From the IMG/VR virus record IMGVR_UViG_3300020048_000077, positions 1 to 64,000 of that record: a stretch of 64,000 nt of DNA; one strand, given 5' to 3'. The notes beneath the pieces were generated by a model that was not told the origin of the DNA, searched no databases, and saw nothing but the letters and a program-made list of their open reading frames with translations. A program made the translations under genes and the position numbers. Shown piece after piece: positions 14,944 through 50,305 of the stretch (position 1 is the stretch's first letter; each line of letters starts with the position of its first letter). The stretch comes from a virus. Taxonomy: Duplodnaviria; Caudoviricetes.

Positions 14944-16116
14944 TTACACTTCCAAAGCTCCCAATCTTGCAGCTTCCGCATCCAGCTCCTTCTGCTTGTC
15001 CAGGCGTACCTGTACAGCTTCAGCAAGCATCGCCTGCCACTGAGCATCTGTCTGCTTGGCATACGTTGAGGAATGGTAGATGCTTCCATTCACTCCTGAG
15101 AGTGATGAATGCACGAAATACTCCTTGCAACGGATGGCACCAGTATTGTCATCTGGCACAGCTCCTACGTTCATAGGATCCACGAAAACGTTGTGGATGT
15201 GTCCAGAATACTGATTGATGTACATCAATCCGCCCATGTGAAGTCCTTTCACACAACTGACATCGTCATTGGTATCAACCTGATCCCAACTATCAAGTGA
15301 ATGAGTGCATCCAACCTTGATGAAATGGCCCGGCTTTTCAAATCCGTTCGCTCCTGAACATGAGAATGCATCTCCACTCATACCCATTACGGCAGGTATG
15401 AAGATACGGTCCTCAACTGTTTCAGGAAGTCCATCTCCTGTGATCTCACCGGTGTTGATGTCAAACGTTTTCAGATACCTTGGTTTCTGGATCGGTTTTC
15501 CATTCTCATCGGCCTCGTACTTCACAGTGTGCTCTGCAGATACCTTGTATCCGTTCAGAAGACCCTCATTGGTGATCTTCATCTGGTACATGGTGGCTCT
15601 TTCAGTTGCAACTGCCTCAGAGAAACCCTGTTTGATGAGGTCGGCCTTCACCTTTGGATGAACATACAGCATGTTCACAAAGTTGAAGAATTTCTTAGCG
15701 AATTTCGCACCCTTCCCTTTCTTGGAGAGGTTCGGATTACGCAGGAATCTCACCCACATCCGAATAAGCGGCATGTAATCGATACCCTTGTCCTGAGAAG
15801 CAAGGATACGGTCCACAAGCGCCTGTGGCATGGCAATGTTCGAAAGAACACCATTGTGCTGCAGATAGAACTTTCCATCCTTTTCATCGATCTTGATGTT
15901 CTCACATGCAGATTCGATGATTGTTGAAATGTCTTGCTTTACAAGCTCCAATGCTTTCGCAGCAATGACGTTGTACTCGGCCATTGTCTTCGCCTCAGCC
16001 GCTTCTGCAGCAAGTGAATCCAATGTGTCATTCAACCCCTTGCTGAATTTTATAGAGAAGTGTTCTTCTCCAATGGAGCCAGCTATCTGGTCTCCGATCA
16101 CTGAAAATGTTATCAT
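14944..16116 (-). CDS. rIIB: rIIB-like protein
   Basis: C-terminal DDVSCVKGLH...VFVDPMNVGAVPDD...RCKEY motif; lies downstream of rIIA. Confidence 0.85.
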   Translation of the reverse strand: MITFSVIGDQIAGSIGEEHFSIKFSKGLNDTLDSLAAEAAEAKTMAEYNVIAAKALELVKQDISTIIESACENIKIDEKDGKFYLQHNGVLSNIAMPQALVDRILASQDKGIDYMPLIRMWVRFLRNPNLSKKGKGAKFAKKFFNFVNMLYVHPKVKADLIKQGFSEAVATERATMYQMKITNEGLLNGYKVSAEHTVKYEADENGKPIQKPRYLKTFDINTGEITGDGLPETVEDRIFIPAVMGMSGDAFSCSGANGFEKPGHFIKVGCTHSLDSWDQVDTNDDVSCVKGLHMGGLMYINQYSGHIHNVFVDPMNVGAVPDDNTGAIRCKEYFVHSSLSGVNGSIYHSSTYAKQTDAQWQAMLAEAVQVRLDKQKELDAEAARLGALEV

Positions 16117-35198: not shown

Positions 35199-35243
35199 GA
35201 AAAAAAGGTTTAAGATTAGTGTTTGAACGTGTTTAAAATTTAG

Positions 35244-35318
35244 TGGAGGATGCAGGACTCGAACCTGCGACCATACTGCAAGAAGCAGTTTCTCTCTAAC
35301 CATCTGAGCTAATCCTCC
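35244..35318 (-). tRNA. Degenerate tRNA, nominally Arg(TCT)
   Basis: Perfect acceptor GGAGGAT/ATCCTCC and T arm. The anticodon loop CT-TCT-TG has U37, and the D and anticodon stems have mismatches. Confidence 0.65.
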
Positions 35319-35391
35319 TACCACCGGTCTTTCCCGGTTGTCAATGGTACTGCACCCGCACCATCTGGGATCGTCTTACGACAATAAAATT

Positions 35392-35775
35392 AGCAGAGAG
35401 GTGTGCTGTTACGCTAAATGCTCAACGGAATCTACATCAGCCTTGCTCCTGTGGCCTTATTGCCTACCACATCCTCAGTGTTCACGACACCAGGTTAAGA
35501 GGTTAAGTCCCGGATCCTCTCGTACAAGGGAACCTTACTGATCATTGAGTTACTTACCTGAATACTACTCCAGCGGGCCTGAGGATCTACGAGTCTTTCA
35601 ACTTTAGAGGCAGGTTACTGTATAATAGATTTTCATGTTCACTCCTCCCGAGTTCTTCCGTTACGCGCCCTACAATTCAGGTTTCACGGTACTTGGATTC
35701 GCGTTTTACCAAGTATTCCCTCTTTGCAACTCCTTAGATGATGGCTGCTTCCAGGCCAACATTCCAGCTCTGCCT
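35392..35775 (-). ncRNA. Structured ncRNA mimicking the 23S rRNA GTPase-associated centre and sarcin-ricin loop
   Basis: H43-like GCUGGAAUGUUGGCCUGGAAGCAGCCAUCAUCUAAGGAGU (35768-35729), SRL core GUACGAGAGGA (35525-35515), H44-like GCGUAACAGCACAC (35414-35401), closing helix GGCAGAG/CUCUGCU. Confidence 0.85.
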
Positions 35776-36831
35776 TTACTTGTACCTGATCACATCAGAC
35801 CATGAAGGTCCATTACTGACAAATACCTTGTCGAACTTCACATTCAACGATGCAAGAAGACCATCGATGTCAATATGGAACTGGTCCATACATGTCACCA
35901 CAAGATTCTTCTTCCTTCCTACAGAATACGGAGAATCGCACTCCAGAGCGTAATTCAACAACTGTGGATTGAGATGTGCGATTCTGAACTCTCCTTGATG
36001 CTCATTGAAAATGTTTGTCTCGTTCTCATTGTTTCTGAGTTCAAGCTTGCATTCATCAGGAAAATACCCATTACCATGTCTTGTAGCATAGCTACGTGTG
36101 ACATAATAAGTTTCATCATTTTCTCCTCTCCACATGCTTGCATTCTTGCCAGTGGTGTTCGACCTTGTGACATTGGGAAAGAACCCATGATCCATATCAA
36201 GAAGAATGCCTTGAGCGCCCTCGTAGATAGGAGTTCCACCTATACTGAACAGATTTGGCACCACCGTAATGATCTCTTTCACTCTTTCCACAAACCCATT
36301 GAACAGGTCTATGGACACATGTAGTTCAGTTGAAGATGGACATTTCGAATACTTCTCTATGTTCTCCAGCTTTCCAGCAAGAACATCCGGATAGAACAGA
36401 TCTCGCACATGCAATTTGTAATGATGTTCCTGTCTTTGTATAGTGGTGCCAAAACCGGCCCCTACAGAACCATGATTCATGATCTTCTCACGTTCTCTGT
36501 TACGACAGATGTCGAACGGAGTAGTGATAATGGCCATGGGATTCACATAGATCTTAGGAGCTACAATCTTTCCAAGAAGAACATCATACTCTCTTACAAG
36601 CGCAGGAGGATAGAGAGTACAGTACTCACTCCAGTAAGTTGGAGCACCTTGAAGTGTTCCTGAACCGAAGGAGGAGAATACATGCCTCTGTCCCTTGTGT
36701 ACGACAGTATGCCCTGCCTGATGCCCACCGTTGAATCTTACAACGATGGGATCAGGAACAGTAGTGCATAGATATGAGGTGACAAGACCTTTGCCCTCAT
36801 CTCCAAACCCAAGTCCAAGAACAGTGCTCAT
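35776..36831 (-). CDS. purA: Adenylosuccinate synthetase-like protein (short, divergent PurA homolog)
   Basis: GFGDEGKG, RFNGGHQAGHTV and EGAQGILLD...PNVTRS motifs. Confidence 0.85.
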   Translation of the reverse strand: MSTVLGLGFGDEGKGLVTSYLCTTVPDPIVVRFNGGHQAGHTVVHKGQRHVFSSFGSGTLQGAPTYWSEYCTLYPPALVREYDVLLGKIVAPKIYVNPMAIITTPFDICRNREREKIMNHGSVGAGFGTTIQRQEHHYKLHVRDLFYPDVLAGKLENIEKYSKCPSSTELHVSIDLFNGFVERVKEIITVVPNLFSIGGTPIYEGAQGILLDMDHGFFPNVTRSNTTGKNASMWRGENDETYYVTRSYATRHGNGYFPDECKLELRNNENETNIFNEHQGEFRIAHLNPQLLNYALECDSPYSVGRKKNLVVTCMDQFHIDIDGLLASLNVKFDKVFVSNGPSWSDVIRYK

Positions 36832-39442: not shown

Positions 39443-39517
39443 TGGTTGTGGCTGGGGGAATCGAACCACCGACCTCCTGCGTATAAGACAGGCGCTCTAC
39501 CACTGAGCTGTACCACA
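39443..39517 (-). tRNA. tRNA-Ile(TAT) with encoded CCA
   Basis: Anticodon arm CCTGT-CT-TAT-AC-GCAGG, D arm GCTC/GAGC, TTCGATT loop and 3' ACCA. Confidence 0.85.
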
Positions 39518-49163: not shown

Positions 49164-49951
49164 TGATAGCCCTTACGATCGCTGGAATCCTTAACAAGAT
49201 GGGCGACATACTTGGATTCTTTAAGAAGTACCCGAAGGAGATGATCATTCTTCTCTTGTCCGGGTACATAGTATTCTGTCAGTTGACACATAACGGACCA
49301 CTAACTGCAGGAGGAAAATGTCCTGAAGCAGGAAATGGAGACACGCTTTCTGACATTACTACGGAAACATTTATATTTGACTCCAGCAAAGTAGTCCTAG
49401 ATGTTTCAAAGCCAGATCCGATATCAACAGTTTCAGGAACCAAAAGAACCTGGAAGCGTCCCGTGTTGGTTGTGGATCCTACTGGCGATTGCCGTGACTC
49501 TATTGCTGGGCTCGTGTCATCCCTTGGTTGGTATGACTTCTCTCTCGGTGAATGTGAAGAAAGACTTCAGGAACTTTCAGCGGTCAGGACTTACAAGGAC
49601 AGCGCCAGTAACGACTCCATGGTCGTTGGATACGGATTCAGTGTCAGAGGAGAACTCATCGGAACACCCGAACTCTGGTACAAGAGGACCGCTCCGTATG
49701 TCACCACTACACGCACCATTACAACGGTTGAAGTTCGTGGGCCGTATAAGAAGATCGGGATCGGTGTTGGCGTTTCTTACATCAATCAAGGAAATAAAGC
49801 AGATCCAGGTGGTCTCGAAACTTCGCTTCAAGCATCGTACATGGACAAGAAGAACAACCAGTTCGTAGTTAAAGGTGGATATCTGTTTCAACAACAGGAG
49901 GGATGGATCGTAGGTATAGGGTACATGAAGAATTTTGATATAAAATTGTAG
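49160..49951 (+). CDS. Spanin-like membrane protein
   Basis: N-terminal TM, coiled segment and C-terminal amphipathic beta-strands; follows the endolysin. Confidence 0.55.
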   Translation: MMIALTIAGILNKMGDILGFFKKYPKEMIILLLSGYIVFCQLTHNGPLTAGGKCPEAGNGDTLSDITTETFIFDSSKVVLDVSKPDPISTVSGTKRTWKRPVLVVDPTGDCRDSIAGLVSSLGWYDFSLGECEERLQELSAVRTYKDSASNDSMVVGYGFSVRGELIGTPELWYKRTAPYVTTTRTITTVEVRGPYKKIGIGVGVSYINQGNKADPGGLETSLQASYMDKKNNQFVVKGGYLFQQQEGWIVGIGYMKNFDIKL

Positions 49952-50141: not shown

Positions 50142-50215
50142 ATAGGAATAGCCAAGTCAGGTATGACGCTACGTTTGGGACGTAGAGATCGTAGGTTCGA
50201 ATCCTGCTTCCTATA
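50142..50215 (+). tRNA. tRNA-Pro(TGG)
   Basis: Acceptor ATAGGAA/TTCCTAT, anticodon arm CTACG-TT-TGG-GA-CGTAG and T loop TTCGAAT. Confidence 0.88.
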
Positions 50216-50305
50216 CAACATTGCGGGATAGAGCAGTTCAAGTCTCCTTTATCCAACTGTAATAACATTTATGTATATTTGTCCGATAACAAAATCAGAC
50301 ATAAA

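Follow-up and report, generated by a model that had tools for sequence, protein, structure and literature searches.

A phage RNA gene resembling the GTPase-associated centre and the sarcin-ricin loop of 23S ribosomal RNA

Can a phage carry a free-standing copy of a functional domain of ribosomal RNA (rRNA)? The question is raised by a stretch on the minus strand of the viral record IMGVR_UViG_3300020048_000077 (Duplodnaviria; Caudoviricetes), of which positions 1 to 64,000, hereafter the window, have been analysed. A preliminary description made from the letters of this DNA proposed that an RNA devoid of open reading frames (ORFs), starting directly after the stop codon of a purA-like gene, joins the two factor-binding centres of 23S rRNA, namely the GTPase-associated centre (GAC) and the sarcin-ricin loop (SRL). 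The stretch indeed contains no minus-strand ORF of 40 aa or longer, and the RNA starts 2 nt past the TAA stop (35778-35776) of the PurA-like ORF. The phage very probably encodes a structured RNA mimicking the GAC and the SRL together, since both mimics are under selection for structure, as judged from covariation across a family of relatives and from invariant tertiary-contact bases in a part of the RNA that the searches left unconstrained. To our knowledge, phages are known for tRNAs, transfer-messenger RNA (tmRNA) and a few ribosomal proteins, and not for free copies of functional rRNA domains.

BLAST comparison of the window RNA with E. coli rrlH gives three collinear pieces, which correspond to 23S 1057-1088 (28 of 32 positions, E 5e-7), 23S 1090-1104 (13 of 15) and 23S 2651-2669 in the SRL (18 of 20, with the 11-mer GUACGAGAGGA exact). 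Positions 35762-35729 differ from the consensus of 23S 1057-1090 by two mismatches; this is the single match in the window, and none of 100 shuffles of the window gives one. In agreement with this, the 40 positions that the preliminary description had likened to the H43 region are identical to E. coli at 31 and to two bacterial 23S rRNAs with GAGU at 1087-1090 at 33. The SRL 11-mer on its own is marginal (E 0.2), and a looser search with an SRL 14-mer yields 9 matches against 4.1 expected; a second SRL-like 14-mer at 49677-49690 lies inside an ORF of 263 aa and is a chance match. The SRL match gains its weight from 33 relatives in which the hairpin keeps its place and has covarying stems. A large subunit (LSU) rRNA model finds no match over the whole 88,996-bp record, and the rRNA-like parts of the window RNA are limited to 1057-1090, 1091-1104 and the SRL core; this RNA is not a full-length or contiguous fragment of LSU rRNA (RF02541).

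The modules of the RNA are collected in Table 1. The minimum free energy of the window RNA folded as a single sequence is no better than that of shuffles (z +0.9), so its structure is visible only by comparison. A clear relative, L391, is found on a 128.8-kb viral contig and is identical in 262 of 396 alignment columns; the neighbouring genes of the two show no synteny. The fold common to both has 14 compensatory pairs and comprises the closing helix P1, the basal helices Pa and Pb of the insert, a long hairpin and the stem that bears the SRL hairpin. P1, which had been recognised beforehand as GGCAGAG/CUCUGCU, shows 5 compensatory changes between the window and L391 and covaries among the relatives. 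Positions 35774-35764 pair with 35401-35392, the inner pairs being formed by G1054 and G1055 (35765-35764; 23S numbering) with C1104 and C1105 (35401-35400), and P1 directly flanks R1056 and C1104. The stem 35542-35537/35441-35436 bears the SRL hairpin and a variable hairpin in a three-way junction, and the long hairpin is not common to other SRL-bearing relatives. The UCCC/GGGA stem first drawn for the SRL lies in part within the family-supported GGUU-CC/GG-GACU helix. The proposed echoes of H96, H91 and H97 are 7-8-mers at chance level: the H91 echo GGCUGAUGUAG is the 3' strand of the stem beneath the SRL hairpin, the H97 echo GUUGAGCAUUUA makes up the 3' side of the helices at the base of the insert, and the H96 echo, located in the variable hairpin, has no conserved counterpart in L391.

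Table 1. Modules of the window RNA and the adjacent tRNA gene (positions in the window; helix and base numbers of 23S rRNA)
Feature	Position	Strand	Remarks
Whole RNA gene, from 5' to 3' strand of P1	35392..35774	(-)	383 nt; ends set by the covarying closing helix
P1, 5' strand, GGCAGAG	35768..35774	(-)	stands where H42 would; 9 of 10 P1 pairs doubly changed across 34 relatives
H43 mimic, 23S 1057-1081	35738..35762	(-)	G at 1067
Junction 1082-1090, CUAAGGAGU	35729..35737	(-)	C1082-G1086 pair, G1087, A1088
Insert	35415..35728	(-)	314 nt, exactly between U1090 and G1091; terminal UUUA
Basal helix Pa	35728-35726 with 35421-35419	(-)	UGC...GCA; fold of window and L391
Basal helix Pb	35722-35716 with 35430-35424	(-)	fold of window and L391
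Long irregular hairpin domain of the insert	35547..35644	(-)	predicted from window and L391; 2 compensatory pairs
Stem carrying the SRL hairpin	35542-35537 with 35436..35441	(-)	AUCAGU with GCUGAU; equivalent stem in relatives
SRL-type hairpin	35506..35534	(-)	stem GGUU-CC/GG-GACU, bulged-G core, GAGA loop; then UUAA (35506-35503)
SRL core, GUACGAGAGGA	35525-35515	(-)	100 nt before the H44 mimic
H44 mimic, 23S 1091-1104, GCGUAACAGCACAC	35401..35414	(-)	A at 1101
P1, 3' strand, CUCUGCU	35392..35398	(-)	pairs with GGCAGAG, 35774-35768
tRNA-Arg(UCU)	35243..35318	(-)	73 nt downstream of the RNA, same strand

The window RNA belongs to a wider family. A scan of viral contigs with an H43 motif gave 35 loci, 34 of which are rRNA-like only over the 32-37-nt GAC stretch, the remaining one being true 23S. 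Further scans gave 52 loci with a 5' motif and more than 119 loci with the family 3' motif UUUR-GCGUARNAGCACAC. The collected set comprises at least 135 non-redundant relatives from viral and metagenome contigs, and the family counts refer to these 135. From 5' to 3', the members consist of a P1 of free sequence, R1056, H43, Y1082-UAA-R1086-GAGU, an arm, UUUR, H44 with A1101 and the 3' strand of P1. The window copy has the same plan, with an H43-like hairpin, Y1082-UAA-R1086-GAGU, an arm after U1090, UUUA and GCGUAACAGCACAC (GCGUARNAGCACAC), so that H44 resumes past the insert, as the preliminary description had it. The H44 motif served as a search pattern and its invariance in the set is partly by construction. 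The 3'-motif searches left the 5' half unconstrained, and there U1060, G1071, C1072, A1084, A1085, G1087 and A1088 are invariant. The pairs 1057:1081 and 1058:1080 covary perfectly over the 135 members, and the tertiary pair 1082:1086 is C-G, U-A or A-U across the family, whereas it is U/A in 120 of 121 true 23S sequences; the C1082/G1086 pair of the window copy is thus the compensatory swap that had been claimed for it. Position 1067 is A in 103 members and G in 29, the window copy included. The arm ranges from 27 to 369 nt, is closed by a covarying stem and carries many unrelated sequences, and in the smallest members it consists of a 27-nt hairpin only. Its last base is G in 114 members and A in the window copy and 20 others. 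Among the 135 arms, recurrence of rRNA pieces is limited to the SRL and a stretch similar to 23S 2850-2887.

The SRL-bearing members number 34 of the 135. A first gapped pattern joining GAC and SRL gave no match on viral contigs because its spacing was set too narrow, and a metagenome scan requiring GUAC-NNN-AGGA 70-100 nt before the H44 motif gave 40 contigs. Like the other members of this subfamily, the window copy has a GUAC-NNNA-GGA hairpin 70-100 nt before H44, UUAA and an insert of about 280-370 nt, and the long-arm members L082, L115, L282 and L298 have the SRL core at the same relative place. RNAalifold predicts 43 pairs on the 34-member alignment, and for counting the tertiary pair 1082:1086 was added to make 44 pairs in 11 helices. 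Standard pairs are formed in 92.6% of cells as compared with 71.0% after shuffling, and none of 500 shuffles reaches the observed value; sliding the partners by 1-3 columns lowers pairing to 34-46%. Pairs changed on both sides amount to 34 of 44, against 26.3 in shuffles. They include 6 of the 7 pairs of the SRL stem and the 1082:1086 pair, which is C-G in 22, U-A in 8 and A-U in 2 members, and the basal helix of the arm covaries within a four-way junction. The GUAC and GGA of the bulged-G core and the last A of the loop are invariant across the 34 members. Outside the common modules the window arm is barely alignable to most of the subfamily (61% identity as compared with 58% in shuffles).

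In 22 of the 34 SRL-bearing members (L082, L115, L282, L298 and 18 other loci) an upstream hairpin loop of the AACCGUACUAAUGAA type, at about arm positions 143-161, contains a 9-nt exact complement (GUAC plus 5) of the SRL 5' strand, which covaries with it. This loop agrees with 23S 2872-2887 in 15 of 16 positions, a likeness that may either result from the complementarity or mark a third rRNA-like piece. The 9-nt masking strand is absent inside the window RNA, where the best complement is a 7-mer outside P1, the GUACAAG at 35781-35787 (-) within the 3' end of the PurA-like ORF. It is the exact complement of the window SRL 5' strand CUUGUAC, and it may be a chance occurrence (about 2% expected) or a masking strand present only in the precursor. 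SRL-type arms were not found in cultured phages; the copy in phage GAP32 (L392, JN882285.1, ~289,520-289,790) has UAUUAGUAC, then a longer hairpin replacing the GAGA loop, then UUAAUAU, and looks like a derived SRL arm in a cultured jumbo phage.

The GAC of 23S rRNA consists of the tip of H42, H43 and H44 (E. coli 1051-1108) and is the 58-nt domain bound by uL11 and thiostrepton. The phage RNA has both hairpins, with covarying H43/H44 helices, as well as the junction sequence, and it retains the conserved bases of the tertiary contacts, namely U1060, A1088, G1071, C1072, 1082:1086 and R1056 with A1103. Unlike the GAC, it is free-standing and phage-encoded, its closing helix, which takes the place of H42, has an arbitrary sequence, it has an arm of 27-369 nt between U1090 and G1091 together with UUUR, and it always has A at 1101; the window copy in addition has G at 1067, which predicts poor thiostrepton binding. 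Since the equivalent of H42 is a plain helix of free sequence, a uL10 site on the window RNA is unlikely, and with it the L10 partner proposed in the preliminary description. The SRL of 23S rRNA (H95, E. coli 2646-2674) is identical to the window core over 2655-2665. By sequence, the window hairpin has all parts of a sarcin-ricin motif: a bulged-G S-turn of the AGUA/GAA type, a closing C-G pair, a GAGA loop of the GNRA class, a pyrimidine-rich flexible region and a Watson-Crick stem, which covaries. It differs from the ribosomal SRL in its place inside the three-way junction of the arm and in a flexible region one pair longer, and its relatives differ further in that they accept non-GNRA loops and, in 22 of 34, have the masking strand that the window copy lacks.

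A blastn comparison of the complete element with cultured phages gave no match, and short queries were required. With these, unannotated copies were read in three cultured phages. That of Xanthomonas phage XacN1 adjoins a 2'-5' RNA ligase gene, that of Pseudomonas phage pf16 lies between tRNA-Asn and tRNA-Pro, and the third is the GAP32 copy. Further matches, the sequences of which were not read, are in Pectobacterium phage CBB, Serratia phage BF, several Erwinia phages, Aeromonas phage 4_4572, Xanthomonas phages XaC1 and XbC2, and Pseudomonas phages Astolliot and UNO-G1W1. All 80 matches examined on bacterial genome contigs are true 23S, because GAGU at 1087-1090 occurs in many bacteria, and this result has no bearing on the presence of the family in bacterial genomes, prophages included. 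Paenibacillus phage Pd_22F (L389, MZ092003.1, ~84,010) has a contiguous stretch of true 23S near one end; either the phage truly captured it, or host DNA entered the assembly. In Rfam 15, both at the gathering threshold and at E up to 10, the only match is the neighbouring tRNA, and a full-text search of the literature found no description of such an RNA, although papers beyond the searched literature could exist. Judged by Rfam 15 and this search, the family of GAC-mimicking phage RNAs is a kind of element not yet described, as had been supposed.

The carrier record is complete according to CheckV. The terminase of the carrier is 39-40% identical to those of uncultured crAss-like phages, the next relatives being Bacteroides, Flavobacterium and Cellulophaga phages, and the carrier is thus a crAss-like phage and probably infects Bacteroidota. 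No uL11 gene is present in its genome. The window RNA and tRNA-Arg, with no terminator-like site between them, are probably on the same transcript. Between the PurA-like ORF and tRNA-Arg, promoter- and terminator-like signals do not exceed chance level in a scan that does not model Bacteroidota promoters. The PurA-like ORF, the RNA and tRNA-Arg are probably co-transcribed. Across the family, a tRNA or tmRNA gene lies within 2 kb of the element in 85 of 135 members and within 20 nt of P1 in 45, and all 401 such genes within 2 kb are on the strand of the element. No protein cluster recurs in more than 7 of the 135 loci, so that the element is an RNA gene complete in itself; now and then a CCA-adding enzyme, YqeY, TerD, AAA ATPases or a homing endonuclease is encoded beside it. 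The element thus belongs to phage tRNA islands, and it is most likely released by processing of the flanking tRNAs. None of the loci of the PurA-like neighbour in 66 viral contigs has the element, indicating that the RNA is not linked to the PurA-like gene.

On this gene, with its fold, its conservation and its tRNA-array setting, a hypothesis for role and target can be built. The phage would make a stable non-coding RNA of about 383 nt, cut from a transcript that also contains the ORF upstream of it and tRNA-Arg downstream. The ends of this RNA reproduce the compact uL11-binding domain of 23S rRNA (H43/H44 plus the closing helix), and the extra arm between U1090 and G1091 shows a sarcin-ricin-type hairpin. 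The 58-nt GAC fragment reportedly binds L11 unaided, as found in the Draper and Ramakrishnan laboratories, and by analogy with the established biochemistry of this fragment the window RNA probably binds uL11 as well. Acting away from the ribosome and loaded with host uL11, it would present a free imitation of the docking site for translational GTPases and ribosome-directed toxins, and would compete with ribosomes for a host protein. On balance we lean slightly towards the RNA being an off-ribosome decoy or sponge of one partner or another. The first choice among partners, a tentative one, would be a defence or competition toxin attacking the GAC or the SRL, a role that would parallel that of phage tRNA arrays answering tRNA-directed nucleases. 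Such a toxin is placed first because bacterial toxins target these two sites and because a tRNA-island setting with RNA-repair genes fits counter-defence. The RNA-repair and tRNA-enzyme neighbours include the 2'-5' RNA ligase of XacN1, the CCA-adding enzyme and YqeY. As for toxins, Tre23 ADP-ribosylates H44 at 1095-1098, and VapC-mt20/26 cleave 23S rRNA (PMC8661411).

Several points weigh against a simple toxin decoy. The window RNA copies the factor-contacting tips imperfectly, because A1067 is G here and the SRL tetraloop of the relatives is not always GAGA. Over the family, the tips that factors and toxins contact are less conserved than the core, as seen in the 29 of 135 members with G1067 and in the variable SRL loops, of which the first three bases are usually GAG, AGAA, AAGA, GGGA, GAUA, CGAA and AAAA loops being found as well. 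Among the matches listed, only 5 of 106 members from viral contigs have the SRL arm. Since this arm is so rare there and the smallest members have only a 27-nt hairpin, the SRL is an add-on and the core function lies in the GAC module. The sequences of the relatives with the 9-mer suggest that their SRL can be masked, which would mean a regulated display instead of a simple decoy. Moreover, a decoy of a catalytic toxin would have to compete with tens of thousands of ribosomes, and we know of no rRNA-directed anti-phage defence that it would answer.

Titration of the translation apparatus ranks a close second to the toxin decoy. The uL11-bound RNA would then sequester a low-copy factor (RelA, IF2, EF-G, RF3, BipA or HflX) or free uL11, blunting the stringent response or retuning translation. 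The structural evidence is the same for both, RelA activation needs uL11, as relC mutants show, and titration is easier to achieve with a low-copy factor than with a catalytic toxin. Free SRL oligonucleotides bind EF-G and IF2, according to a passage of PMC3496166 that cites Munishkin and Wool 1997, but the affinity of the isolated SRL for EF-G is only micromolar (PMC3496166). Nor are the factor-contacting A1067 and GAGA loop strictly retained, uL11 already bound to ribosomes would stay there, and the phage itself requires working translation. It is less likely that the RNA, together with host uL11 and perhaps with bL12 through uL11, is a miniature free-standing factor-binding centre that engages translational GTPases or RelA-type factors with ribosome-like geometry. 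As a natural 'ribosome-in-pieces', it would trap or idly activate host factors, and relatives with a masking strand would display the SRL conditionally. An equally doubtful explanation holds that the GAC fold is only a stable, nuclease-resistant clamp tying the ends of a variable payload arm, the function residing in the arm or in RNA-only assemblies and having nothing to do with ribosomal ligands. An S-turn with a GNRA loop is a common building block, and the 27- to 369-nt arms with their many unrelated sequences would suit a payload, as would the precedent of ROOL and GOLLD, which are also large phage RNAs by tRNA islands and form RNA-only cages (PMC12286853). The smallest members, however, are little more than the GAC mimic and a hairpin, so that the constant and probably functional part is the GAC. 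A generic motif would also hardly explain a second module that copies the exact ribosomal partner of the GAC with 11-13 identical bases, and the SRL, apart from its own complement, is the sole rRNA piece that recurs in the arms.

Action in trans on the ribosome, for example by docking to 50S or 70S particles, assembly intermediates or ribosomes with a damaged stalk base, appears distinctly improbable. We know of no mechanism by which a free domain replaces a covalent part of 23S rRNA, and no conserved single-stranded region complementary to rRNA was noticed, although the element sits among translation genes and GOLLD is reported, in work cited in a passage of PMC12286853, to pull down ribosomes. 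There is very little to be said for a GAC minigene with a mature product of 60-70 nt, in which the insert would be a mobile insertion or a self-splicing, group I-like intron. As at group I splice sites, the upstream piece does have a terminal U, and most inserts (114 of 135) have a terminal G, but the inserts of the window copy and 20 others end in A, inserts may be as short as 27-45 nt and are then plain hairpins, no Rfam intron family matches at E up to 10, and the basal helix of the arm covaries in a four-way junction. Hardly credible at all is a dead fragment of host rRNA or an assembly chimera. Some phage records do contain pieces of true 23S (Pd_22F, L097), but the record contains no other LSU rRNA sequence, compensatory changes are abundant, and the split architecture with the deviations of the family (A1101, GU...UUUR) is found again in over 130 contigs, as well as in cultured phages with finished genomes, which removes the chimera that the preliminary description had itself named as a danger.

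If the structural reading is right, a family widespread in crAss-like, T4-like and jumbo phages would reproduce the uL11 site, one branch adding the SRL, and phages would have a new way of acting on the translation machinery or of fending off attacks directed at it. Structural biologists would also gain a minimal, naturally occurring model of the GTPase-docking site, and if the target is a host toxin, the family would point to yet-unrecognised rRNA-directed anti-phage defences. The unannotated members of the family in the cultured phages GAP32, CBB, XacN1 and pf16, that of CBB being a match whose sequence was not read, make these ideas testable at the bench.

The phage RNA can be compared with other RNAs that imitate rRNA or share its surroundings. 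The synthetic 'ribosome-in-pieces' oligoribonucleotides, as outlined in passages of Mitkevich et al. 2012 (PMC3496166) and attributed also to Munishkin and Wool 1997, are free copies of the SRL and thiostrepton domains that bind EF-G or IF2 off the ribosome. They are separate laboratory molecules, whereas the phage gene is natural and has both domains in one RNA. The leaders of ribosomal protein operons (L10, L1, S15) likewise imitate an rRNA site, by which they bind the ribosomal protein, but they are loose mimics that act in cis before a ribosomal protein gene, and the phage RNA is a near-exact copy found in tRNA arrays. That the phage RNA is such a leader was considered and rejected: the downstream gene is a tRNA, no ribosomal protein gene is nearby, the genome has no uL11 gene, and no leader family in Rfam matches. 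ROOL and GOLLD resemble the phage RNA in being large, ornate structured RNAs of phages and prophages by tRNA islands (PMC12286853); they are not rRNA-like, and the window RNA has no sequence or Rfam match to them or to other large RNAs.

A few features of the surroundings remain to be described. The PurA-like ORF (35776-36831 (-), 351 aa) is an adenylosuccinate synthetase homologue (Pfam E 2e-41), far under every NCBIfam cut-off for PurA, and the PurZ model is weak as well (41 bits against a cut-off of 300); its relatives are 35-49% identical, two truncated matches reaching up to 56%, and many of the 66 viral contigs that bear them belong to very large phages. Between the RNA and tRNA-Arg, the spacer of 73 nt (35319-35391 (-)) contains the hairpin ACCGG-GAAAGA-CCGGU. 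The window has two further tRNAs, Ile(UAU) at 39443-39517 (-) and Pro(UGG) at 50142-50216 (+), and its three tRNAs (Arg(UCU), Ile(UAU) and Pro(UGG)) all read A-ending codons, as is usual in AT-rich phages. The arrays around the elements of L071, L072, L076, L120 and L356 include tRNAs with a CUA anticodon (amber suppressors, called tRNA-Pyl by ARAGORN), and there are hints in the sequences that several carrier phages may read TAG as sense. An ORF at 14944-16113 (-) (389 aa) has a weak C-terminal match to the lysis-inhibition protein RIIB (PHROGs E 1e-8), which is unusual for a crAss-like phage.

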